Assembly (NCBI GenBank): GCA_035708165.1 | Contig: DASSSZ010000005.1 | Coordinates: forward strand, 112,840-176,839 | Direction: 5' to 3' | Length of the DNA stretch: 64,000 nt | From: Minisyncoccota bacterium | GTDB lineage: Bacteria; Patescibacteriota; Minisyncoccia; Phycocordibacterales; UBA2100 | Shown here: one piece after another, positions 2,023 to 63,510 of the stretch | Position numbering within the stretch: the first letter of the stretch is position 1 | Layout of the letters: each line of letters opens with the position of its first letter | Program-made: the position numbers and the translations under genes | The notes under the pieces: generated by a model | Databases searched by the model: none | What the model saw: the letters and a program-made list of their open reading frames with translations, nothing else | What the model was told of the DNA's origin: nothing

Positions 2023-2096
2023 CCGCCCGTAGCTCAGCTGGTTAGAGCTCGGAGCTTATACCTCCGCGGTCCTTGGTTCGAATCCAAGCGGGCGGA
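2023..2096 (+). tRNA. tRNA-Ile, anticodon UAU (gene TAT)
   Basis: Hand-folded cloverleaf. Acceptor CCGCCCG pairs with CGGGCGG. D-arm is GCTC/GAGC and T-arm is CTTGG-TTCGAAT-CCAAG. Anticodon loop is CTTATAC. No CCA is encoded. Confidence 0.75.
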
Positions 2097-2193
2097 CACG
2101 CATTCGCAATTCGTACGAGCGGCACCAGGGTGGCGTGGGATATTCCGCCGCGGTCCTTGGTCGGATCAGTGGGCAGGCGTGCACCGCAAGGAT

Positions 2194-13662: not shown

Positions 13663-16600
13663 ATGAGTCCCATGCCACGCTACACGCATGAGAAGACAGC
13701 CGCACCTCGGCGCGCTCGCGGTACGACCCGCCTCGGCGGGCTGCTTCTTGCGCTCATCGTGGTGCTCGCCGGCGTCGCTTCAGGCGTGCCGGGCCGGTTA
13801 ATGACACTCGCCTCGGTCCCGCGGACGCCGCTCCTTGCCGCTGCCGCAGCAGCAGATGCGACCGGTACCGCACCGATAGGTGCTGCCGCAACGAGCATGC
13901 CAGCGCTCGCGGGCGCGCCGAGCAAGCTCGGCATCAACGTCCCGCTCGAGCTCTCGCGTCCGCTTTCGGCGCAATCGGCTACCTTCGCGAAGGATGTGTC
14001 GGCGAACTCCCTCACGATCTCCGGCAGCGCGACCTTCGGGTCGCCGCTCTCGAGCCACGGCCCGGCGACGATCGACGGGCTGCTCGAAGCCGAGGGCGGC
14101 GTCTCGACGAACGGCGCCGATATCGACCTCGGCGGCGGCAAGCTGTTCGCGTCGAACGTGCTTTCCGGGATCACTGCGGGCACGAACGTCACGATCACCG
14201 GGCCGGCGAACCACCCCACGATCTCCGTCAGCATGCCGCAGCAGCAGGCGCCGATCTTCTTCGGTGGCGGAGGCGGCGGCCTCAGCTCGATCACGGCAGG
14301 GAGCGGGCTCTCGGGCGGCACGATCACGGGCGCTGGCACGCTCGCGCTCAACCTCGCCAGCGCGAACGTCTGGAGCGCGCTGCAGTCGTTCGGAGCCGGC
14401 GCATCGACGACCGATCTCGTCATCGCCGGCACCGCGACCACGAGTGCGCTTTCGATCACGAGCGCGACATCCACGCTGCTGAAGACCGATGCGAGCGGCG
14501 CCGTCATCCCGGCAATAGCGGGCGTGGACTACGAGCTGCCGGGCGGCCCGAACGCGGCCGACTGGCTCGTTACGGATGGCGCGCTCTCGCCGACATCCAC
14601 GATCGGCATCCTTATCGGGGCGAGCTCAACCGTGGGCGACGGCTCGCAGGCAGGCGGCCTCACGGTAGCGGGCGGCGCGACGACGACGGGGGACGCATAT
14701 ATCGGAGGGAACATGGCTGCAGCCGGTGCCCTTTCGATTACCGGCACGACGACGCTCGCGAGCATCGCCTCAGGCCTCGTGAAATCGGTCGGCGGCGTGC
14801 TCTCGGCGGCTATCGCCGGGACCGATTATGTCGCGACGTCGACCCTGGGCAGCTATTTCTCGCTTCCTGACTGGTATGCGACGACGACCGATGCCCTCGC
14901 CGAAGGCCCTACGAACAAGTACTACACCGACGCCCGCGTGCAGTCGTATCTCGATTCGCTCAGCAAGGGCTACTACTTCGGCACCACCTCAGCCGCATAC
15001 TTCCTCTCGCAGAACCAGGGCCTCGCGTTCTCTACTTCGTCCGCTAACTACCTTCTTTCTACGAAGGGCTACGGCACCTTCGGTTACCTCTTCCCGAACG
15101 ACGCGACGACGACCGGCCTCGGTTTCTATGCGTCGACGACGATCGGAGATGGGACGCAAGCCGGCGGCCTCACGATCGCCGGCAACGCGACGACGACCGG
15201 CTCTCTTACCATTTCAGGCACAGCGACCTCGACTTTCGCCAGCGGCATCGATCTCGCGAGCGGCTGCCTTGCGGTGAATGGCGCCTGTGTCGGCTCGGAC
15301 CCGTGGGTGGTGAGCGGCGCGGCGATCTCCTACGGGATGGGTAACGTGGGTATCGGGACGACGACGACGCCGTATGCGCTAACGGTCGCGGGCGATGGCA
15401 GCGTCTCCGGCGCGTTCACGGCAAAGAGCACGTTCATGGCTGGCGAGTACACCCGAGCGCTGCCGTGGCTCGATCGCACGGAAGCGGGTACACGCGATTG
15501 GGCTCCCGTCACATCCTCTTCGGATGGAACGCATATCGCCGCAGCGGTATATGGGGGTGATATCTATACCTCGACCGACGATGGCGCGACGTGGACTGAT
15601 CGCACGGCTGCCGGCAGCCGTAATTGGCAGTTCATCACGTCATCTTCCGACGGCATGAAGCTCGCAGCAGTAGTCAACGGCGGCGACATCTACACCTCGA
15701 CTGATGGCGGCGCGATCTGGACCGATCGTACTGCTGCCGGCAGCCGCAGTTGGCAGTCCGTTACCTCATCTTCCGACGGCACGTACCTTGCAGCGGCTGC
15801 CTATAACGGCGATATCTACACCTCGGCCGATGGCGGCGCGACGTGGACCGACCGCACCGCTGCGGGCGCGCGGTATTGGCGCTCCGTCACTTCATCTTCC
15901 GACGGCACGAGACTCGCGGCTGCGGACGGCGCCGCCGCCGGGTACATCTACACCTCTACCGATGGCGGCGCGACGTGGACAGTACGCACCGCTGCGGGCG
16001 GGCAGCGGTACTGGCAGTCCATCACTTCCTCCTCCGACGGCATGAAGCTCGCAGCGGTAGTCAACGGCGGCGACATCTACACCTCGACTGATGGCGGCGC
16101 GACCTGGACCGATCGTACTGCTGCCGGCAGCCGCAGTTGGCATGCCATTGCCTCGTCCGCTGACGGCTCGCTGATCATCGCGAGCGCGGATAATGGGAAT
16201 GTCTATACATCAAGCGACTCCGGTGCGACCTGGACGGAACAAACGGCGCTCGCTTCAGGTCGCTGGCTCGGCGTCAGCATGTCTGCTGACGGTACCAAGC
16301 TGGTAGCGGCAGCTCTTGGCGGCGATATCTGGGTATACGATGCTGCAGGCATCCAGACCCCTTCGTTCATCGTCGACTCGACGACCCACAACGTCGGCGT
16401 CGGCTCGACGACGCCTGGATCGCTCCTCGCCGTCGGCGATAGGAACGGCATCAATTTCTCGACCGCCACGAGCACGTTCTCTTCGATCGGCGGCATCAAC
16501 CTCTCTGCCGGCTGCTTCGCCGTCGATGGCACGTGCATCGGCACGGTCCCCTGGGCCACCAATGGCTCGGCTATTTCCTATACCGCCGGCAATGTGGGGA

Positions 16601-19068: not shown

Positions 19069-20862
19069 TTAGATCGTGAGGAGCGAAGTGATCGACGAGA
19101 GAAGGGAACAGGTCTCGCCGCAGGAGCCGCCCGGCGTCGTGCCGGTCATGGCCTCGAAGTGGCTGTCGATCTCGGACTGGCTGAGGAGGCGGTCATACAC
19201 CGCGACCTTGCCGACGGCGCCCTTGAAGAAGGTATCCATCGCCATCGTGCCGATATCGAGCGGCGAGCCGCCGGCCTTCGGCGTGATCTTGTACTGGCTC
19301 ATGCAGCCGGTCGGTGCATGGTCCGCGAAGCTCTGCTTCACGCCGTCGACCCAGATGCTGATCGAGCCAGGGTACTGCGAGGAGCAGCCCGACGGCGTCG
19401 TCTTCGTCTGGTACTCGGCGACGACATAGACCCACTCGCCGGAAGCGATCTGTCCCTTCGACGGCTGCCAGTCCGCGGCGCTGCCGAGGCCCGCCGACGG
19501 GTTGAAGACGTAGGCCGAGAGGCGCTCCGGACGGCCCTCGGCCGTATCGGATCCGTAGATGCGGGCCTCCCACTCGCACGAGGGCGAGTAGTCCTCGCAC
19601 TTGCCCATCCAGTCCACGTAGCCGTCATCGCTATCCTTGGGGAAGGAGAACGTGTCGGCGCGGACCCAGCCTTCCCAGGTGAGCGCGCCCGTGGCGGGGA
19701 TGGAGAACGAGCGATCGGACGGGACAGTCAGGTACTGGCTCGTGCCGTTGAAATCGGCCGCCGTATCACCGTTCGGGAGCGTCGCCGAAGACGGCGTGCC
19801 GCCCTTGTAGGTGCCAGTGTGGCCGTTGCCCGAGAGGTCCTGCTCATGGCCGGAAGCCATGCCATCCATCGCGAGGTAGAGGACAGGCTTCGCGGCAAGG
19901 ATCGTCGCGTCGTACGCGGTGCCGGCCTTGGTGCTGCTCGTGCCGCTCTCAGCCGGAGCCGGATCGGATGCGACAGGGTCGCTCGATGCGGCCGCTGCCG
20001 ACGCCGCTGTCTCGAAGTTATCGAAGACGAGGTCGCCGAAGGTGCTCTCGATGCCGGCCGTACCAGCCTTCGCGAGCGTCGCGTCCGAGTCGAGCGCGGA
20101 CGCCGCGAGGGTCCAGCGGCCGGTCCAGCCGATGTCGGTGTAGAGGCTGAGCTTCTGGCCCTTCGACGTGTTGGTCACGTCGAGCTTGAGGCCGACCCAC
20201 TTATTGAGCGGGATCAGATCGGCATCGCCGCTCGCGCTCCATGTGCCCGGAAGCACCTTCTTCACGGCGAGCGTGGTGAACGAGCCGTTCACCTTGCGCT
20301 TGATGACGACATTGCCGTCAGCGCGGATGCCGGCGTAGTAGTAATCATTCCCGTCCTGGTAGCGCGCGATGACGGACTCGCCGTTGTACGCGTGCCGGTT
20401 CGCCGCGTTCGACAGGTTGTCGCGGATGCGGTCGAAGTAGGCGGAGACGGACCCGTCCGCGAGCGCCTGCTTCGTCAGCATGAGGAAGCTGTTCTGCGGA
20501 TGCGTGCCGCTATCCGACCAGACGGCGCTGCCGCTGCGCTTCTGCGCTCCTTGGAGCGTCTGGCCGCGGCCGCCCTTGATCACGAGGGCGTCGCCCTCCG
20601 CGAGCCAGAAGTACGGGCTCGTGCTATTCGCAGGAGAGGACGCCTCACGCAGGGTGCCGGCGCTGTTGAACGTATAAAGGAAGGGATTCGGCACTGCGCT
20701 CTGCGCGGTTGCCGGCGCTGCCGGGACGAGCACGGCTGCTGCCGTGATCACGCCCGCAAGCGCGATGCCGAACGTGCCGAGGGCGCGGAGCGCCTGCGGA
20801 CGAGCGGCATGGGATAACGGAGGGTTCATAGGATCACGTCCGGGGCGGAGCGAAGGCTCCAT
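19069..20862 (-). CDS. secreted protein with concanavalin A-like lectin/glucanase (LamG-like) jelly-roll domains
   Basis: N-terminal signal/TM (LGTFGIALAGVITAAAVLVPAAPATA). The C-terminal half has the LamG-like pattern (TWEGWVRAD...VYVVAEY...SIWVDGVKQ...AVYDRLLSQSEI). The start (MEPSL versus MNPPL) is uncertain. Confidence 0.6.
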   Translation of the reverse strand: MEPSLRPGRDPMNPPLSHAARPQALRALGTFGIALAGVITAAAVLVPAAPATAQSAVPNPFLYTFNSAGTLREASSPANSTSPYFWLAEGDALVIKGGRGQTLQGAQKRSGSAVWSDSGTHPQNSFLMLTKQALADGSVSAYFDRIRDNLSNAANRHAYNGESVIARYQDGNDYYYAGIRADGNVVIKRKVNGSFTTLAVKKVLPGTWSASGDADLIPLNKWVGLKLDVTNTSKGQKLSLYTDIGWTGRWTLAASALDSDATLAKAGTAGIESTFGDLVFDNFETAASAAAASSDPVASDPAPAESGTSSTKAGTAYDATILAAKPVLYLAMDGMASGHEQDLSGNGHTGTYKGGTPSSATLPNGDTAADFNGTSQYLTVPSDRSFSIPATGALTWEGWVRADTFSFPKDSDDGYVDWMGKCEDYSPSCEWEARIYGSDTAEGRPERLSAYVFNPSAGLGSAADWQPSKGQIASGEWVYVVAEYQTKTTPSGCSSQYPGSISIWVDGVKQSFADHAPTGCMSQYKITPKAGGSPLDIGTMAMDTFFKGAVGKVAVYDRLLSQSEIDSHFEAMTGTTPGGSCGETCSLLSSITSLLTI

Positions 20863-23549: not shown

Positions 23550-23625
23550 GATTCTTGTATGCGTACCATTCTATACCATGCTCGAATGACGATAGACCTA
23601 TCCTATGGTATCGTGTGGCCGTACA

Positions 23626-23712
23626 GGAGACGTGGCTGAGTGGTCGAAGGCACCTCACTGCTAACGAGGCGGGGTCTCAAAGCCCCCCAGGGTTCGAATC
23701 CCTGCGTCTCCG
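23626..23712 (+). tRNA. tRNA-Ser, anticodon GCU (class II, long variable arm)
   Basis: Acceptor GGAGACG pairs with CGTCTCC. Anticodon loop is CTGCTAA. Long variable arm GGGGTCTCAAAGCCCC. T-arm is CAGGG-TTCGAAT-CCCTG. Discriminator is G. No CCA is encoded. Confidence 0.85.
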
Positions 23713-23780
23713 CAAAAATAATGAGGGCGAAGCGTCAGCTCCGCCCGATTATATTTTTGCCGGAGACGCAGGGATTCGAA
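23707..23780. repeat. 74-nt structured repeat, copy 1; it starts inside the tRNA-Ser 3' end and ends with an inverted copy of the tRNA T-arm/acceptor (ggagacgcagggattcgaa)
   Basis: ctccgcaaaaataatgagggcgaagcgtcagctccgcccgattatatttttgccggagacgcagggattcgaa. Nested palindromes: caaaaataat/attatttttg and gagggcg/cgccc. Confidence 0.7.
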
Positions 23781-23879
23781 AGCCGCAGCCCCGTGGAGCG
23801 GGGCGAGGCGGGGTCGCGAACGCTTGCGGGGTTCCGAGCCGGAGGCGAAGGAACCCGTCAAGCGATTCGTGACCGAATC

Positions 23880-23952
23880 CTCCGCAAAAATAATGAGGGC
23901 GAAGCGTCAGCTCCGCCCGATTATATTTTTGCCGGAGACGCAGGGATTCGAA
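23880..23952. repeat. structured repeat, copy 2 (identical 73 nt), preceded by a degenerate T-arm fragment (cgaatcc)
   Basis: Exact direct repeat of copy 1, 173 nt downstream. The same peptide string KIMRAKRQLRPIIFLPETQGFE appears in two spurious ORFs. Confidence 0.7.
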
Positions 23953-41758: not shown

Positions 41759-41829
41759 AGCGGGGTGGAGGAGCGGTACCTCACGAGGCTCATAACCTCG
41801 GGACCCTGGTTCGAATCCAGGCCCCGCAA
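41759..41829 (+). tRNA. tRNA-Met, anticodon CAU, initiator-like (unpaired A1•A72)
   Basis: D-arm GAGG/CCTC. Anticodon stem CGAGG/CCTCG with loop CTCATAA. T-arm CCTGG-TTCGAAT-CCAGG. Acceptor AGCGGGG/CCCCGCA leaves positions 1:72 unpaired, as in bacterial initiators. Confidence 0.65.
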
Positions 41830-42190
41830 CAAGCAAACGAGAACCCGGCGCATGCCGGGTTCTCGTTTGCGCGGCGCGGGGAAGAAGGCAGCCTGCGCTG
41901 CCTTCGCCTGGATCCGAACAGGCGGAGCCGTATCGCGCGCAGCGAAGCGAGCACGATCGGCGAGCCCGGGGAGGAAGTCCTTAACGAGCGGAGCGAGTTT
42001 AGGAACTTGACCCTCGAATCCAGGCCCCGCAACAAGGAAACACGAGCGGCCATTCGGCCGCTCGCGTTCTTCGTATTTCTCGTAGGTGCGGGCAGGTGCC
42101 GTCCGGAGTCGACTTTCCAGGCCCACAACTGCTGCTCCACCCTCCAATAGCAACGATCCGATAGGCAAGCCTATCGGATCGTTGCTTATG

Positions 42191-45800: not shown

Positions 45801-45873
45801 GCCACCTTAGCTCAGTTGGTAGAGCGACGCACTCGTAACGCGTAGGTCCCCAGTTCAATCCTGGGAGGTGGCT
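45801..45873 (+). tRNA. tRNA-Thr, anticodon CGU
   Basis: GCCACCT-TA-GCTC..GAGC-G-ACGCA-CTCGTAA-CGCGT-AGGTC-CCCAG-TTCAATC-CTGGG-AGGTGGC-T. Confidence 0.9.
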
Positions 45874-45950
45874 CAAAGAGATTCATCAGATCCATTCGCT
45901 CCGATTCGGAGCTCCAGGGGTGGAGGGTGATGCGAGCGCGCGCAGCATCG

Positions 45951-45997
45951 CCCACTCGTACCTCACGGTGCCAGTTCAATCCTGGGAGGTGGCTCAA
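45951..45997 (+). pseudogene. partial tRNA-Thr(CGU) duplicate (anticodon-loop-to-3'-end fragment)
   Basis: cccactcgtacctcacggtgccagttcaatcctgggaggtggctcaag. The last 27 nt are identical to the 3' end of the intact tRNA ~100 nt upstream. The 5' part is degenerate. Confidence 0.6.
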
Positions 45998-46042
45998 GTG
46001 GAGAAGGCGCCTGCGGCACCTTTCTGAGTTGGTATACTGCCT

Positions 46043-57569: not shown

Positions 57570-57640
57570 TGCCGGATCGTCTAATGGTAGGACAACGGAT
57601 TCTGGCTCCGTTTATCTAGGTTCGAGTCCTAGTCCGGCAG
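57570..57640 (+). tRNA. tRNA-Gln, anticodon CUG
   Basis: TGCCGGA-TC-GTCT-AATGGTA-GGAC-A-ACGGA-TTCTGGC-TCCGT-TTAT-CTAGG-TTCGAGT-CCTAG-TCCGGCA-G. Confidence 0.85.
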
Positions 57641-57715
57641 CAGCTTAGTTTAGTATCGAAGGACCTAGAGGGGTATAAATGCTTCTGTTTCTACTCACCC
57701 CCCGAAAGGCCTATA

Positions 57716-60529
57716 ATGTATGGGTTGCCCATTATGGATTCTTACAAGTATGGGTCTAAATGGCGTAGGTGGGATTTGCACCTACATACACCAGAAACCC
57801 TAAAAGAAGATCAGTACACTGGAACGACGCCCGAGGAAAAGTGGGAGAATTTTTGCAATGATATAAACTCCACCGACGCTGAAGTATCGGTCGTGGGCGT
57901 AACCGACTATCTCCTCATCGATAACTACAGGAAATTCCACTCCTTCATCGATTCAGGGAAGATCACCAAGAAATTCGACCTTGTCATCCCAAACATCGAG
58001 CTTCGGCTTACCCCGGTGACCGGAAGCGGGACAGCCTTGAACCTCCACCTATTAATCGATCCTGCGTTCGTGGACCAGCTCGAGTCCCGCATTTACTCAA
58101 AACTCAAAATCAAAAGCGGCACGACGGAATACACCGCTCTTCGGGCTGACTTGATTCGTCTCGGTAAGACGATAGATGCGGCAGCTTCAGACGACGTCGC
58201 GTACAAGAAAGGAGCCGAGCAGTTCGTCATCGATTTCGATACCCTCAAAGGAGTCTTTGATAACGATCCCGACCTGCGTAACCACTGCCTCATTGTGGTG
58301 GCTAACAGCTCGCATGATGGAGCCACGGGTGTAACGCACCACGCAAGCTTCTTCACGGCTACCGGCTCGAGCCTCGATACTAAGCGACAGGCGATTTACA
58401 AATTTGTTGACGCTATATTCTCCGCTAATCCTAGCGACCGTACATACTTCCTCGGTAAGTCTTCCAGCGATACACGCGACATCGTCATCGACAAGTGCGG
58501 AAGTCTCAAGCCGTGCGTGCACGGATGCGATGCGCATACTAACGCGAAGATCTTTAAGCCGGATCAAAATCGATATTGCTGGATAAAGGCGAATCCTACG
58601 TTCGAGGGCCTACGACAAATCCTATTCGAGCCGGAGGAGCGCATCTGCGTTCAAGAGCTACAGCCGGATGAGAAGGAGCTTTATCGCGTTATCGACAAGG
58701 TGAAGCTGACCGATGCGAATTTCACTGCCGAGCCGCTCGAACTCAATCCGAATCTGAACGTAATTATCGGCAGCCGCTCATCAGGAAAAACGACGCTGCT
58801 TAACAGCATTGCTAAAGCGGTAGACGTATCTGAATACGAGCTGCGTCATAAAGATTCCCCGCCCATAAAGGAACCTCCAAGCGCAAACGTGTTCTGGCTC
58901 GACGGCGCGGAAAGCGGTGCTGCAGAAACGCAGAAAGGCATTACCTACATACCTCAAAACTACATAAACAGCCTCGCCGAAGCGACCGAGGAAAATTCGC
59001 CCATACTTGAGATCGCCGAGAATGCGCTCTTCGACAGCACAGGCGGCATTGCTCAGGAAAGGAAGGATTTAAATCTCAAAATCGAGCAACTTAACCGCAC
59101 CATCGGTAACGACGTCTACCAGCTTTTTGTTACCCGGAAGCAGATCGCCGAGCAGAAGGAGAAGATCAAAAAGATCGGCGACAAAAAAGGTATAGAGGAG
59201 CAAATCAAGAAAGTCGAAGCCGAAATCGCGAAGCTTCAAAAGGACCTTACCAAAGCTGAGGCTGCTACTTTAAAGAAGCTCCGTGAAGAGTATGCGGACA
59301 ATAAAAAGCAAATCGAGACCATTACTGCTGATGTCGAGACGCTGACCGAGGAAACCGCTGATGTCGAAAGGGGTGCCAGCTTTTTTGAGGAAAGATCGCT
59401 CAGCTTGAAATCCGAGGAGCTGTCACGAGAGCTTGGCGAATTCACTGGCAAGCTCCAGGATGAATACCTGCAAAAGTACGTAGCGTTCGTTAATAGGAAA
59501 AAGGAGGAGCTGGCCAAGGAAAAGAAAAAACTCGAGGAAGACAATAAGAAAATACTCGACAACAACAAGGTCCTTATTGATAAGGCAAAGCAGAACACGG
59601 CCGCCGATCAGAAAGTGAAGGAGAAGGAGGCTCAGGACAAAAAGCTCGCGGAAATATCGTCGGCAGAGAAGGCGCTCAAGACCAGCGAGGATGCGCTATT
59701 GGCCACGCTCACAAAAATCGTTCTGGCGCACAAGGAGCGCTCTAACGCCCGACATGCCTTCGTCGCGAAAGCAACCGGAGATCTGGAAGGGATCGAGTAC
59801 CGCGCAGTGGTGGGGATCGACACGGTGAAGCTCGATAAGTTCATGACGGATTTCGTGAACTTCCACAACTCAACCGGCGCACGTACCCAGCTCAATGCGA
59901 TTCCTGGCTATAAAACGGGCGAGGACACGGATGTTTCGACTCTGATAAAAAACGACAACATTAAGACAACCGCCGAACTTATTCTTAGCGATACCTTGAA
60001 GCTTAAAGCCGGCATCGATTTGCAGCGCGCCATCGAGGGACTGTTCGGCGACTTTGAATTCATCAACTACTCTCTCAAATATGAGGGCGACAACTACCCT
60101 GAAATGACCCCAGGCAAGAAATCTCTCGTCGTATTAAAGCTGCTCGTCGAATCCAGCGAGGATAAATATCCGATTCTCATAGACCAGCCAGAGGACGATC
60201 TCGATAGCCGTTCAATATCGGGCGAAATCGTCGATTTCTTACGCTCCAAAAAGAAGGAGCGACAGATTATCCTCGTCACACATAACGCGAACATTGCTAT
60301 CAAGGCAGATGCGGAGGAGATCATTGTCGCCAACCGTCACTCTACGCAGCATCCGAACAAGAATGCTGTCATGTTTGATTACACGACAGGCGCTATCGAG
60401 ACGAGCTTCGTAAATCCGTCTGCCGCATTTTCTCTTGACAAAATGGGTATGCGCGAGCATGCATGTGAACTTCTGGAAGGTGGTGAGGAAGCGTTCGAGA
60501 ATCGGAAGAATAAATATAATCTAAAGTAA
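57716..60529 (+). CDS. PHP-domain phosphoesterase fused to an SMC/OLD-like ABC ATPase (single-protein anti-phage defense candidate, Ppl-like architecture)
   Basis: N-terminal PHP motifs (WDLHLHTPET, ...SSHDGATGVTHHASF, CVHGCDAHT). ABC ATPase with Walker A IIGSRSSGKTTLLNSI, a ~250-aa coiled-coil insertion, Walker B/D-loop ILIDQPEDDLD and H-loop LVTHNAN. A TATAAT box lies 6 nt upstream. Confidence 0.8.
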   Translation: MYGLPIMDSYKYGSKWRRWDLHLHTPETLKEDQYTGTTPEEKWENFCNDINSTDAEVSVVGVTDYLLIDNYRKFHSFIDSGKITKKFDLVIPNIELRLTPVTGSGTALNLHLLIDPAFVDQLESRIYSKLKIKSGTTEYTALRADLIRLGKTIDAAASDDVAYKKGAEQFVIDFDTLKGVFDNDPDLRNHCLIVVANSSHDGATGVTHHASFFTATGSSLDTKRQAIYKFVDAIFSANPSDRTYFLGKSSSDTRDIVIDKCGSLKPCVHGCDAHTNAKIFKPDQNRYCWIKANPTFEGLRQILFEPEERICVQELQPDEKELYRVIDKVKLTDANFTAEPLELNPNLNVIIGSRSSGKTTLLNSIAKAVDVSEYELRHKDSPPIKEPPSANVFWLDGAESGAAETQKGITYIPQNYINSLAEATEENSPILEIAENALFDSTGGIAQERKDLNLKIEQLNRTIGNDVYQLFVTRKQIAEQKEKIKKIGDKKGIEEQIKKVEAEIAKLQKDLTKAEAATLKKLREEYADNKKQIETITADVETLTEETADVERGASFFEERSLSLKSEELSRELGEFTGKLQDEYLQKYVAFVNRKKEELAKEKKKLEEDNKKILDNNKVLIDKAKQNTAADQKVKEKEAQDKKLAEISSAEKALKTSEDALLATLTKIVLAHKERSNARHAFVAKATGDLEGIEYRAVVGIDTVKLDKFMTDFVNFHNSTGARTQLNAIPGYKTGEDTDVSTLIKNDNIKTTAELILSDTLKLKAGIDLQRAIEGLFGDFEFINYSLKYEGDNYPEMTPGKKSLVVLKLLVESSEDKYPILIDQPEDDLDSRSISGEIVDFLRSKKKERQIILVTHNANIAIKADAEEIIVANRHSTQHPNKNAVMFDYTTGAIETSFVNPSAAFSLDKMGMREHACELLEGGEEAFENRKNKYNLK

Positions 60530-61798
60530 AATTAGGTTTTTATTTTCCAGCTGTAGTTGGGATTTCAGGCAAGTGAGAAGATCTCGCCTCTCAAATATCG
60601 ACCCTTCGGTTAGCAGGTACTTCGCGTAGTTGCGAATATCGGCGTCCTTCACAGAATAATTCTCGTCTGCCTTGCCCATAATCCCTGAATGGAACTTCTT
60701 ATGCCGCTCAATCTCAGCCTCGAGCTTTTTCTTGATACCAGAGCGGTCAAGATCTATCTGGTCAATAATTTCCGTTAGTTGCGAGATAAGGACCTTCTCC
60801 TCAATGTAGCCTTCTTTGCAGTTGATATTCCGTGAGCGAGTGCAACCATAGTAGATGTACTTGGCGATCGAACCGTCCTTCAGGGTCTTGAATTTCTCTT
60901 GGGCCGTCACACCGGATCCGCAGGTTCCACAGGAGAGCAAACGAGTGAAAGCGAACTCTTTGTTTTTGCCTCGGGCTTTGATTTGAAGGTGAAGCTGCTT
61001 CTGCACCTCTTCGAAAAGTTCTCTGGATATGAGTGGCGTATGCTTACCCTGGAACCATCGGCCGCTGTTCTTGGGGTATTCAAAAGTACCGTAGTAGAAG
61101 TGGTTATTGAGAATGACGTATACGTTGCTCAGAGTTAGAGGTTTGCCGGTACGGGTAACGAATTTGATTTCCTTGAGCCAGCGATATACTTTCCTACCAC
61201 TCCAGCCTTCATTGGCTACTTTCTGAAAGAGTTCCTTCATAACAGGGGCTCGATCAGGATCTACGAACACCACGCCTTTCTGATCCTTATTTTTTGAATT
61301 GAGATAACCGGTTGGGGCTACTGAAGGCCAGAGGCCGAGCTCGCACTTGGTTTTGAGCCCGCGCTTCACATTGATGCTCTTGTTGTCGTTCTCCAGCTTC
61401 GCCTGGCTACCAAGGATCATGAGAAGGAACTTCTCATTGGGGTTGTTAGTGAAGCGTTGACTGTAAGTACGAATTTCAATGAGCTTCTTCTGGTCGAAGA
61501 GATCCACGATCGCCCCAAGGTCGCCGGCATTGCGGGATAGACGGTCCGGATGCCACACCAAGATCCCATTGAATTTACCCTCCCGAATATTGAGAAGGAG
61601 CTGGTTGAACACAGGCCGCTGGCCGGCATCCTTTGCGGAGTGCGATTCTCGGTACATATCGACCACATTCAGTCCGTCTCGCTGCGCTAAGGCCAACATC
61701 TCCTTAAGCTGGGAATCTATCGAAAGCGCCTGTTTTTCCTCGGCTTCGCTCGATTTTCGGGCGTACAGGCAGTACCTGACTGGCTCCTGGTTTTCCAT
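60521..61798 (-). CDS. large serine recombinase (serine integrase)
   Basis: Resolvase catalytic N-terminus VRYCLYARKSSEAEEKQALSIDSQ (nucleophile Ser). Recombinase domain. Zinc-ribbon CGTCGSGV...YYGCTRSRNINC plus a coiled coil. The start could alternatively be 61843. Confidence 0.85.
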   Translation of the reverse strand: MENQEPVRYCLYARKSSEAEEKQALSIDSQLKEMLALAQRDGLNVVDMYRESHSAKDAGQRPVFNQLLLNIREGKFNGILVWHPDRLSRNAGDLGAIVDLFDQKKLIEIRTYSQRFTNNPNEKFLLMILGSQAKLENDNKSINVKRGLKTKCELGLWPSVAPTGYLNSKNKDQKGVVFVDPDRAPVMKELFQKVANEGWSGRKVYRWLKEIKFVTRTGKPLTLSNVYVILNNHFYYGTFEYPKNSGRWFQGKHTPLISRELFEEVQKQLHLQIKARGKNKEFAFTRLLSCGTCGSGVTAQEKFKTLKDGSIAKYIYYGCTRSRNINCKEGYIEEKVLISQLTEIIDQIDLDRSGIKKKLEAEIERHKKFHSGIMGKADENYSVKDADIRNYAKYLLTEGSIFERRDLLTCLKSQLQLENKNLILL

Positions 61799-61911
61799 AC
61801 AACACAACACATGCCCGAAGCCGGGGAAGAAGTCCATACCCAAGCTGGTGGTAAGAAATACGGCTTTAAACCAAGGCGATTTCGTGATAAAATCATGAAA
61901 ATCCTTATTTT

Positions 61912-63510
61912 ATGGCCACGTTGAATTGGATCGGAAAAGAGGCGGTGGCAAACCACGACAAAGAGGTGCCTTTCAAGTTGCTTGAGAAAGTCCCGAGCGC
62001 ATCCGTCGGTAAGGAATCAAAGAATCTCGTCATTCACGGCGACAATCTAGAAGCACTTAAAGCACTTTTGCCTTTCTATCAAGGCGAGGTTAAGTGCATT
62101 TATATTGATCCTCCATACAACACCGGAAACGAGGATTGGGCATACAACGATAATGTAAGTTCTCCCAAAATTCGAGAGTGGATCAAGAAAACTGTGGGGC
62201 GAGAAGGGGAAGACCTCACTAGACATGACAAGTGGCTTTGCATGATGTATCCCCGTCTTAAACTCCTTCGTGATCTTTTACGGGATGACGGGGTCATATT
62301 TGTCAGTATCGATGACAATGAACAGCACCACCTCAAGATACTGATGGATGAGATTTTCACAGCTCGGAATTTTATTGGGCAGATTACCGTCGTTGGAAAC
62401 CCACGAGGTAGAGATTATGGTGGAATTGCGCGCATGCACGACTACCTTCTTGTTTACTCGAAGGAGTTTGGAAAGGCAGATATCAACAACTTGAACGATC
62501 CTGATAAGGAGTTTCCTTTTGAGGACAGCAGGGGAGGTTTTGAGATTCGCGAGCTACGCAATCGCAATATTGCTTTCCATATAGGGAATAGGCCTAATCT
62601 TCATTACCCCTTTTATGTCAATCCAAAGAAGAAAGACGAGAATGGTTTTTTTGAGATCTCGCTTGAGAAAAAGAGTGGCTGGACTGAAGTTTTTCCGAAA
62701 GAATCTCAGGGATTTAAGACTGTTTGGCGTTGGGGGAAAGCGCGTTCTCAGCAAAATCTGAATACTGAAATTGTTGCAAAGAAGATGATGGATGGTGGTT
62801 ATCAGATTGTTGAAAAGTATCGTGAGAGAACACGGATGGCTCGATCTGTCTGGTGGGACAAAGATGATAATACTGAAAAAGGAACGCTGGAGGTTAAGAA
62901 TCTTTTTGATGGCAAGAAAGTGTTCAATTTCCCTAAGTCCATGGAAATGGTACGGAAGGTGGTTGAGATGGGTACTGGACCAGACGACATTGTCCTTGAT
63001 TCGTTTGCGGGATCGGGTACAACAGGCCACGCTGTGCTCGATTTAAACAAAATGGATGGCGGACACCGTCGCTTTATTTTGGTTGAAATGGAAGATGACG
63101 TCGTGAAGAAAATCACTGCTGAAAGGATCAAGAAAGCTATAAAAAAGTACGACTATGACGGAGGCTTTGAATATTGCGAGCTCGCTTCCGCCCTTTTTGA
63201 TCAGAATGGATTGATAAATGAGTCGTGTTCATATGCCGACTTGGCTTCTTACATTTTCTTCACCGAGACGCAAACAAACGTCGATAAAAAAGCAATCAAA
63301 AATCCATTCGTTGGTGAGAGTGGCGGGATTTCCTACTACCTCGTTTACGCTGGCCGTGGAAAAAATGACTTAACTCGAGCTTCACTCAGCAAGCTCAAGA
63401 TCGCCGGTCCTGCAGTCGTATATGCTGATCGTTGTCTTGTGGACGAGGATGAACTGAAGGAGAAAGGTATTACCTTCAAACAGATCCCGTACGAGATAAC
63501 AATCTACTAA
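61912..63510 (+). CDS. mod: Type III restriction-modification system methyltransferase (Mod), N6-adenine type
   Basis: Motif IV DPPYN, motif I FAGSGTTG and Mod-like overall architecture. 532 aa. Confidence 0.9.
   Translation: MATLNWIGKEAVANHDKEVPFKLLEKVPSASVGKESKNLVIHGDNLEALKALLPFYQGEVKCIYIDPPYNTGNEDWAYNDNVSSPKIREWIKKTVGREGEDLTRHDKWLCMMYPRLKLLRDLLRDDGVIFVSIDDNEQHHLKILMDEIFTARNFIGQITVVGNPRGRDYGGIARMHDYLLVYSKEFGKADINNLNDPDKEFPFEDSRGGFEIRELRNRNIAFHIGNRPNLHYPFYVNPKKKDENGFFEISLEKKSGWTEVFPKESQGFKTVWRWGKARSQQNLNTEIVAKKMMDGGYQIVEKYRERTRMARSVWWDKDDNTEKGTLEVKNLFDGKKVFNFPKSMEMVRKVVEMGTGPDDIVLDSFAGSGTTGHAVLDLNKMDGGHRRFILVEMEDDVVKKITAERIKKAIKKYDYDGGFEYCELASALFDQNGLINESCSYADLASYIFFTETQTNVDKKAIKNPFVGESGGISYYLVYAGRGKNDLTRASLSKLKIAGPAVVYADRCLVDEDELKEKGITFKQIPYEITIY

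Follow-up and report, generated by a model that had tools for sequence, protein, structure and literature searches.

Why should an intact tRNA gene be followed at short distance by a second, incomplete copy of its own 3' end? The question is raised by tRNA-Thr(CGU), shown above in the piece 45801-45997 of a 64,000-nucleotide (nt) stretch from a Minisyncoccota bacterium (GenBank assembly GCA_035708165.1, contig DASSSZ010000005.1; hereafter the window), and by the genes for tRNA-Ile(UAU), tRNA-Ser(GCU) and the initiator-type tRNA-Met (tRNA-Met-i) in the same window. The mobile elements of Patescibacteria (candidate phyla radiation), to which this organism belongs, are poorly known, and their genomes are thought to be streamlined. 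An original prediction offered three explanations for the four cases, i.e., the footprint of integrases that target tRNA genes, a family of tiny mobile repeats derived from tRNA ends, and tRNA-like 3' structures retained as terminators or processing signals. Our tentative answer, which could well be right although several observations speak against it, is that the partial copies are the far boundaries of gene-less mini-elements flanked by attachment-site (att) repeats at tRNA 3' ends, similar to the microCIMEs (CIME, cis-mobilizable element) of streptococci.

Results

The partial copy behind tRNA-Thr(CGU)

The intact tRNA-Thr(CGU) gene is followed by a short insert, by a copy of the gene from the anticodon loop to the 3' end, and by a terminator-like hairpin:

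45801-45874, plus strand: intact tRNA-Thr(CGU) (ARAGORN; Rfam tRNA model, 62.8 bits)
45850-45876, plus strand: repeat copy 1, within the intact tRNA-Thr, comprising the T-arm, the acceptor 3' strand and 2 nt of trailer (repeat search)
45877-45952, plus strand: gene-less insert of 76 nt, with no open reading frame (ORF) and no promoter-like site
45953-45997, plus strand: partial copy of tRNA-Thr(CGU), anticodon loop to 3' end (alignment, repeat search)
46003-46024, plus strand: terminator-like hairpin, then TTTCT, behind the partial copy (sequence, palindrome search)

The repeat search returned a direct repeat of 27 nt with 100% identity (45850-45876 versus 45971-45997). The anticodon-loop octamer CACTCGTA of the tRNA is found again at 45953-45960, in register but for a 2-nt deletion, so that the partial copy keeps CACTCGTA, has diverged over the next 10 nt, where the deletion lies, and is identical over its final 27 nt (45971-45997). 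Local alignment of the tRNA-Thr 3' half to the 400 nt downstream scored 50, compared with a mean of 15.1 (standard deviation 2.3, maximum 25) in shuffled sequences (z = 15). The predicted anticodon-loop-to-3'-end copy with its identical last 27 nt was thus borne out, and we place it at 45953-45997; the Rfam tRNA model had no match to it. The hairpin behind it is probably the original terminator of tRNA-Thr. Within the insert, a small hairpin, GCTCCGATTCGGAGC, lies at 45898-45912, and the sole clear hairpin, with 8 bp and the loop GAGCGCGCGCA of the GAGCG type, lies at 45926-45952; the inverted segment of this insert is only degenerate.

Two Logan contigs from sample SRR25158513 support only the flanks of the Thr case (loci and contigs other than the window are cited by L number). 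L162 ends at 45831, i.e., at position 31 of tRNA-Thr, and L001 begins at 45971, exactly where the second 27-nt repeat starts. Since a 27-nt repeat should not break a k=31 graph, a second allele of this stretch may exist in the sample. As an empty-site allele, the two contig ends were set aside as suggestive and not interpretable, the left break point being a misfit to a simple empty site.

The tRNA-Met-i, tRNA-Ser and tRNA-Ile loci

The element behind tRNA-Met-i is composed of the following parts:

41759-41830, plus strand: intact initiator-type tRNA-Met (ARAGORN)
41835-41868, plus strand: first hairpin behind tRNA-Met-i, a palindrome that reaches into the tRNA acceptor 3' strand (28-nt arms, 86%)
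41906-41919, plus strand: inverted copy of the Met-i T-loop and T-stem 3' strand, GCCTGGATCCGAAC (repeat search, 14 nt, 93%)
41919-42014, plus strand: two-hairpin core of the Met-i element (fold, nhmmer, alignment to L169)
42014-42041, plus strand: direct partial copy of tRNA-Met-i from the T-loop to the 3' end, with 8 nt of trailer (repeat search; assembly L178)
42043-42064, plus strand: canonical terminator behind the partial copy, 9-bp stem and T-rich tail

The direct repeat spans 28 nt at 96% identity (41811-41838 versus 42014-42041) and extends 8 nt beyond the tRNA end. The only canonical terminator of this locus stands behind the partial copy and not behind the intact gene, and the trailer of the partial copy resembles the native Met-i trailers of relatives.

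The arrangement behind tRNA-Ser(GCU) is more complex:

23626-23713, plus strand: intact tRNA-Ser(GCU) (ARAGORN)
23714-23780, plus strand: trailer unit 1, a bidirectional terminator hairpin and an inverted copy of the tRNA-Ser T-loop-to-3'-end segment at 23761-23780 (26-nt arms, 92%)
23781-23874, plus strand: two-hairpin core of the Ser element, its left part 74% identical to tRNA-Ser positions 40-70
23875-23885, plus strand: 11-nt stub, all that is left of a direct copy of the T-loop and 3' end of tRNA-Ser, internally deleted (GAATCC..TCCGC)
23886-23952, plus strand: trailer unit 2, identical to unit 1, with the second inverted copy at 23933-23952 (repeat search)

An exact repeat of 73 nt (23708-23780 versus 23880-23952) includes the direct stub, and the 3' end of tRNA-Ser (20-26 nt) occurs twice more in inverted orientation. 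The direct tail copy that had been predicted for Ser does exist, but it is merely this 11-nt stub, and the locus consists mostly of inverted and trailer repeats.

The tRNA-Ile locus has these parts:

2023-2097, plus strand: intact tRNA-Ile(UAU) (ARAGORN)
2141-2179, plus strand: degenerate partial copy of tRNA-Ile, from the anticodon loop towards the 3' end, 43 nt behind the tRNA (alignment, repeat search)

The direct repeat covers 21 nt at 90% identity (2057-2077 versus 2141-2161; z = 9.6) and is degenerate onward to about 2179, and the insert measures 43 nt.

The hairpins that trail Met-i and Ser (41822-41881 and 23693-23780) are long palindromes, the left arm of which is the acceptor and T-arm 3' strand of the tRNA itself (28-nt arms at 86% for Met-i, 26-nt arms at 92% for Ser). 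In a read-through transcript, the tail of either tRNA could pair with its own trailer. The Rfam model sX4 describes a Xanthomonas small RNA with a tRNA-like 3' end that pairs with downstream sequence; tRNA-Ser with its trailing hairpin (23612-23774) matches it at 36.8 bits, below the gathering score of 70.

The copies exceed chance and lie downstream only

ARAGORN and the Rfam tRNA model both give eight tRNA genes in the window, one fewer than the nine counted earlier. Each tRNA 3' half was aligned, on both strands, to the 400 nt on either side of the gene, other tRNAs being masked, and downstream direct alignments with a score of at least 24 were counted. Six of the eight window tRNAs reached this score (four genuine cases and two cross-matches), as did 8/33 tRNAs with a downstream same-strand copy at Patescibacteria loci from other genomes, compared with 0/45 upstream controls on either strand in the window and the Patescibacteria loci together. 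None of eight tRNAs at non-Patescibacteria loci reached the score, a sample too small for a claim of phylum specificity. Significant inverted copies were likewise found downstream only. The check proposed with the original prediction, that copies should always stand downstream and in the same orientation, was therefore passed by the direct copies. An apparent fifth case, tRNA-Asp on the minus strand, was rejected, as its match is the reverse complement of the core hairpin of the Met-i insert and not a local copy; it is found also in L169, whose local tRNA-Asp has a different T-arm.

In the independent Logan assembly L178, the tRNA-Met-i, its insert and the partial copy are identical base for base, which excludes an assembly artefact for Met-i and answers the doubt raised beforehand on this point. 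The claim that four tRNAs are followed by a copy of their own 3' end stands for Thr, Ile and Met-i, and for Ser in the more complex form described above.

The copies begin at one of two places, namely the anticodon loop for Thr and Ile (and for Leu and Ala in L017) or T-arm positions 55-61 for Met-i and Ser (and for the cases in L003, L028, L169 and L176), and the direct copies run through the tRNA 3' end. The repeat-to-repeat spacing is 121 nt for Thr, 203 nt for Met-i, 172 nt for Ser and 84 nt for Ile. The window inserts, of 43-184 nt, are free of ORFs, in agreement with the earlier remark that they carry no cargo. The Rfam tRNA model detected no full-length tRNA homology in the copies even at E values up to 5-10, alignments of tRNA 5' halves in the window stayed at background level, and no 5'-half copies were found upstream.

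A shared layout with a conserved two-hairpin core

Six well-preserved cases, i.e., Ser and Met-i of the window, L169-Asp, L176-Met-i, L176-Asp and L028-Glu, define a shared layout in which the intact tRNA is followed by one or two hairpins, an inverted T-loop-to-3' copy, a two-hairpin core, a direct tail copy and a second terminator, usually unrelated to the first. The inner end of the inverted copy, adjoining the core, is T54 in all six cases. The direct copy begins in the T-loop or the 3' strand of the T-stem and extends through the 3' end, and its T-loop has often lost 1-4 nt; a further partial unit follows the first at Ser, L169-Asp and L176-Asp. Because the inverted and direct copies can pair, each element is predicted to fold as a three-way junction; the predicted fold of the tRNA-sense strand is more stable than that of its complement in seven of eight cases. 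The inserts of Thr and Ile, where the copies begin at the anticodon loop, are shorter (76 and 43 nt) and have no clear inverted copy.

The core is conserved across distant genomes. The last 57 nt of the Met-i core and the core behind tRNA-Asp in L169 are identical at 54/57 positions (95%; nhmmer E 5e-10), two of the three differences form one compensatory pair, and the neighbouring protein is only 51% identical between the window and L169. The arms around this shared core differ, matching Met-i in the window and Asp in L169. Two further cores, behind Met-i and Asp in L176, are related at E 2e-11, with compensatory changes in both hairpins. RNAalifold on an alignment of five cores, the structure being derived from the same sequences, gave two hairpins with 85% of the cells paired versus 33-41% in slid-partner controls, both-sided change in 16/23 pairs, and one G-U pair conserved in four of the five sequences.

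A core model built without the window Ser element (R2) found that element at the expected place as the second-best match in the window (17.3 bits, E ~0.017). The top match of this leave-one-out model, 20701-20769 on the minus strand (19.7 bits, E ~0.005), lies in a coding region, has the loop motif CAGCAG and is probably due to chance. Both core models, R1 and R2, recovered only the Ser element in the window and missed the Met-i and Thr cores, and a single covariance model for all cores was dropped for this reason. The subfamilies are therefore joined by layout and short motifs only, and the elements are subfamilies with a common layout, not one proven family. A homology between the Ile and Thr inserts (p ~0.02 versus shuffles) was rejected as not significant, since tiles from unrelated parts of the window reach higher scores. 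The original prediction had not noticed that the core is conserved and structured, that inverted copies exist, or that the Ser case consists mostly of inverted and trailer repeats.

Patchy distribution among relatives

Orthologous sites in relatives, whose comparison had been proposed earlier, were found filled in some and empty in others for Met-i and Asp, and had no copy for Thr; these relatives are distant, with 41-55% identity in the neighbouring protein, and exact insertion boundaries are not readable from them. At the Met-i site, the window and L176 carry an element, but L169 and L175 do not; at the Asp site, one is present in L003, L169 and L176 and missing in L166; and the Thr(CGU) copy is present in the window only and in none of L166, L169 and L176. 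A given tRNA can be followed by different core types in different lineages, and a given core type can follow different tRNAs; this mixing of core types and tRNA targets across lineages is the pattern of insertion and not of an inherited functional module. The whole sample comprises about a dozen mini-elements of 75-250 nt, and no tRNA-tail repeat lay more than 450 nt from its own tRNA in any fetched locus (flanks of 4-10 kb).

Other rearranged tRNA sequences were seen at the related loci. In two Kerfeldbacteria metagenome-assembled genomes (L022, 1340-1515; L017, 1500-1712), an intact tRNA-Ala(GGC) lies between fragments of an older tRNA-Ala, a 5' fragment GGGCCCTTAGCTCA... and a 3' fragment ...AGGTGACCGGTTCGAGTCCGGTAGGGTCCACCA, the acceptor strands of which match each other. 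The inverted repeats that bracket the intact gene show compensatory differences between the two genomes (CCCGCACCATTCC/GGAATGGTGCGGG versus CCCGCCTG/CAGGCGGG), and the old 3' fragment is more conserved between them than the intact tRNAs are. This locus looks like a tRNA nested inside a tRNA. In L169, at about 14440-14480, between tRNA-Thr-GGU and tRNA-Thr-CGU, GCCGAAGTAAGGGGCCCCTACCTCTTGCTTCGGC joins the two acceptor strands (5' and 3') of the downstream tRNA-Thr(CGU), with a small hairpin between them, and looks like an internally deleted tRNA copy upstream of the gene. A partial copy of tRNA-Leu(UAA) in L017 (6690-6775) is identical to the gene over 36 nt, counted from the anticodon loop; a 26-nt hairpin is then inserted exactly in the T-loop, and 13 further identical nt complete the copy. 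The T-loops of dead copies seem to attract small insertions and deletions.

Genomic context

The window has a G+C content of 64% and encodes housekeeping functions (ftsH, recG, ATP synthase, ligA, gatCA, queA, tgt, prfB, ftsEX) together with type IV pilus and DNA-uptake-like genes. The nearest homologues of its tgt in the genome and metagenome collections scanned are 63-65% identical and belong to Patescibacteria, and none above 65% identity was found there.

One block of genes, which begins directly after tRNA-Gln(CUG) (57570-57641) and extends to 63510, differs from the rest of the window, with a third-position G+C content (GC3) of 0.61 versus about 0.85 elsewhere:

57716-60529: SMC/AAA_21-like ATPase
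60521-61843, minus strand: large serine recombinase
61912-63510: DNA methylase

This low-GC3 block is probably an integrated island or a defence cassette; no tail repeat of tRNA-Gln was found at it.

Discussion

Att-flanked mini-elements as the favoured explanation

We tentatively favour att-flanked mini-elements as the source of the partial tRNA copies. Site-specific recombination would occur within the tRNA gene, either at the anticodon loop (Thr, Ile) or at the T-loop (Met-i, Ser), and the incoming DNA would supply its own tRNA 3' part and a hairpin. The tRNA gene would stay intact because the incoming DNA brings this replacement, and the original 3' part with its terminator would be displaced 75-200 nt downstream and would decay there. 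The remaining interior would represent the two arms of the attachment site of the element, i.e., the inverted tRNA-tail copy and the conserved two-hairpin core. A tyrosine-type recombinase is the putative maker, the downstream copy would be the original one, and the mini-form itself may move.

The displacement of the original 3' end is supported by the canonical terminator and the native-like trailer that follow the Met-i partial copy. The direct copies behind 4/8 tRNAs of the window and 8/33 at the related loci, versus 0/45 upstream, support the att explanation, and so do their starts in the anticodon loop or T-loop, the two sublocations classically used by integrases. The patchy presence among relatives and the occurrence of one core behind different tRNAs also speak for it. 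The tandem second units behind L176-Asp, the window Ser and L169-Asp look like accretion.

A number of points weigh against this explanation. Where a near-identical core stands behind two tRNAs, the tRNA-derived direct and inverted parts have changed while the arms stayed 95% identical, and a fixed attP does not easily explain how the tRNA parts around such a core were rewritten. The inverted copies, always ending at T54 beside the core, are foreign to classical att sites. The Thr copy is a mosaic, with 27 identical nt beside a strongly diverged patch of 10 nt, which is not uniform decay. The modelled covariation and the conserved G-U pair suggest selection on a folded single strand, which would be unexpected in a dead remnant, and elements that stand alone and are very frequent lie outside what the att explanation covers. 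No integrase was found in or beside any insert, and the approximately 32 window proteins scanned gave no match to the tyrosine integrase family Phage_integrase; the sole recombinase of the window is the large serine recombinase at 60521-61843, unrelated to these tRNA sites. The window, 178 loci and IMG/VR yielded no parent element with the cores, and no phage attP that fits the tRNA ends was detected in IMG/VR. The IMG/VR scan used three core motifs and two tRNA tails and yielded nothing or three chance matches in coding DNA. Finally, the 4-10 kb flanks of the fetched loci held no large tRNA-bounded islands, and the size range that would suggest decay is therefore missing. What had been proposed as an integrase footprint holds in its att-like geometry; neither integrase nor parent was found, and old integrations are plausible and unproven. 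Of the three options in the original prediction, tiny mobile repeats fit best, given the related cores behind different tRNAs and the empty orthologous sites.

Relation to known systems

The microCIMEs of Streptococcus salivarius are gene-less, att-flanked elements of 130-220 bp, which have been found only in tandem with an integrative and conjugative element (ICE) or an integrative and mobilizable element (IME) and are assumed to derive from one (PMC7563491). CIMEs in general, which are what remains, between att sites, of decayed ICEs and IMEs, occur very commonly at the 3' end of tRNA-Lys in S. agalactiae (PMC7563491). The elements described here are likewise gene-less, have the 3' end of the target gene as a direct repeat at either boundary and show tandem accretion; they keep the att repeats, have no recombination or transfer genes and no ORFs, and their repeat spacing of 121-203 nt (84 nt for Ile) is similar to the size of about 130-220 bp that characterizes microCIMEs. 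Unlike microCIMEs, they have no visible parent or integrase and stand alone behind a large share of tRNA genes, and they possess a covarying two-hairpin core, an inverted tRNA-tail copy and nearly the same core behind different tRNAs.

Tyrosine-integrase prophages and islands leave classical attL/attR footprints in tRNA genes, as reportedly described by Reiter et al. (1989) and Williams (2002). An intact tRNA with a downstream same-strand 3' copy that starts in the anticodon loop or T-loop is common to these footprints and to our cases, and the repeat geometry, the start points and the patchy orthologous sites all agree with them; no integrase lies within the segment. The inserts here are 75-200 nt long and non-coding, whereas classical inserts measure kilobases and carry an integrase; documented tRNA-integrated inserts are 9-23 kb long and encode integrase (PMC9897764).

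Miniature inverted-repeat transposable elements (MITEs) and palindrome-associated elements of the IS200/IS605 type resemble our elements in another respect. In both cases they are small, non-coding, hairpin-rich and present in several copies per genome. Here, in contrast to them, the terminal inverted repeats are locus-specific, as they copy the local tRNA, the interior is conserved, and there is neither a short target-site duplication nor a cognate transposase. The IS200/IS605 target motif was tried as a model and rejected, together with integron attC boxes and left and right guides in the style of bridge RNAs, because the geometry misfits. Two RNA-based sources of the copies were rejected too. 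Reverse transcription halted at m1A58 or position 37 would not account for the anticodon-type copies, of which the anticodon is itself a part, and an origin of the inverted copy from a retroviral-type primer-binding site disagrees with most inverted copies, which end short of the tRNA 3' terminus.

Alternative explanations

The alternative that survives best, although it is unlikely, is a self-contained, protein-less mobile element of natively small size, in which the paired tRNA-tail copies would mimic the tRNA target in single-stranded form. A host recombinase, Xer-type or other, would insert it, as happens with the attP of CTX phage or the attC of integrons. Integron attC and CTX-phage attP(+) are folded single-strand recombination sites, and the stem of the CTX phage mimics its chromosomal target. 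Our elements share with these sites an imperfect palindrome, a structure kept more than the sequence and, by prediction, possibly a branched centre; they differ in that the R'/R'' consensus is absent, no IntI was found, and the putative target is a tRNA gene and not attI or dif. All well-defined copies are predicted to fold as an outer stem of inverted and direct copy that encloses two hairpins, with the more stable sense strand noted above. The hairpin covariation (16/23 pairs, 85% versus 33-41% of cells paired, one G-U pair conserved) would fit such an element, though it comes from only five sequences from which the structure itself was derived. The core is 95% conserved between distant genomes with both flanking arms matched to the local tRNA, the sizes are discrete with no large islands seen, and the type IV pilus and DNA-uptake-like genes of the window offer a possible source of single strands. 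On the other hand, no recombinase is linked to the elements, excised or single-stranded forms are purely hypothetical here, both arms would somehow have to be rewritten for a new tRNA, and Thr and Ile have no clear inverted copy. The attC consensus boxes are missing as well, with no consistent GTTRRRY/RYYYAAC pair in the sequences inspected by eye; IntI was not searched genome-wide.

A bolder form of this idea, to which we give only a small chance, would place the elements in a class of their own, not described before: mobile DNA of about 100-250 nt that encodes no protein and is specific to the tRNA genes of Patescibacteria. The arms and core would imitate the target tRNA gene, a host recombinase would insert the element at the T-loop or anticodon loop while rebuilding the tRNA, and the arms would be rewritten for each tRNA.

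It is improbable that the elements are functional RNA modules in the tRNA trailer, where a three-way junction formed on read-through would tune 3' processing, titrate a tRNA-binding factor as its decoy or sponge, or boost termination. The conserved structure with its compensatory changes and conserved G-U pair, the more stable fold of the sense strand, and tRNA-derived arms that match the local tRNA almost perfectly in several genomes are all consistent with such a role. There is also the weak resemblance of tRNA-Ser and its hairpin to sX4; no family of Rfam 15 reached its gathering threshold on any element, and the best matches below it, both on the Ser hairpin, were sX4 (36.8 bits versus 70) and DUF3800-IV (36.6 versus 60.7). 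Against this role, the elements sit behind a hairpin that already follows the tRNA, no promoter-like site was found in the inserts, and an antisense arm that pairs with the tail of the tRNA would compete with the folding of the tRNA itself. Moreover, the patchy presence, the empty orthologous sites and the different core types behind the same tRNA are unlike a needed function. The terminator or processing-signal option of the original prediction is not upheld on the same grounds.

The chance is low that the copies arose by local tandem duplication of a tRNA gene or its 3' half, in which slippage or unequal recombination would have made a pseudogene that then decayed and took up small hairpins, with no mobile element involved. 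Exact tandem repeats of trailer units do occur at Ser and L169-Asp, the Met-i and Ile inserts may, judging from global alignments, faintly resemble the 5' halves of their own tRNAs, part of the Ser core is 74% identical to tRNA-Ser positions 40-70, and two Kerfeldbacteria loci have old tRNA-Ala fragments flanking an intact gene. Duplication does not account for homologous cores behind different tRNAs and in different genomes, for the sharply mosaic identity (27/27 nt identical beside unalignable sequence), for mostly unrelated terminators behind the two copies, or for starts that are always in the anticodon loop or T-loop and not random, and no upstream 5'-half copies are present in the window.

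Least probable of all, and very unlikely, are decayed scars of large prophages or integrative elements, trimmed by random deletion to an inactive mini-form with no conserved function: the att-like geometry, the small genomes of Patescibacteria and the low-GC3 island with its large serine recombinase behind tRNA-Gln, a sign that foreign DNA does enter at tRNA genes, would fit them, but a spread of sizes would be expected where more than 12 elements of 75-250 nt and none larger were seen in 4-10 kb flanks, independent decay would not leave the same covarying two-hairpin core in several genomes and behind several tRNAs, and no parent sequences were found.

Implications

The att-flanked mini-elements are best filed under a known kind, as microCIME-like; notable are their density at the tRNA genes of a streamlined genome and the conserved structured core. 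For genome annotation, the partial copies are liable to be miscalled as tRNA genes or attachment sites, and metagenome assemblies are likely to break at them and at the identical trailer repeats. Since a quarter to half of the tRNA genes sampled have a tiny insert with a conserved folded core behind them, a recombination system directed at tRNA genes seems to be active in these bacteria, or to have been so recently. If the mini-elements do move by themselves, they would be among the smallest site-specific mobile DNAs known, with a target mimic built from the target itself.

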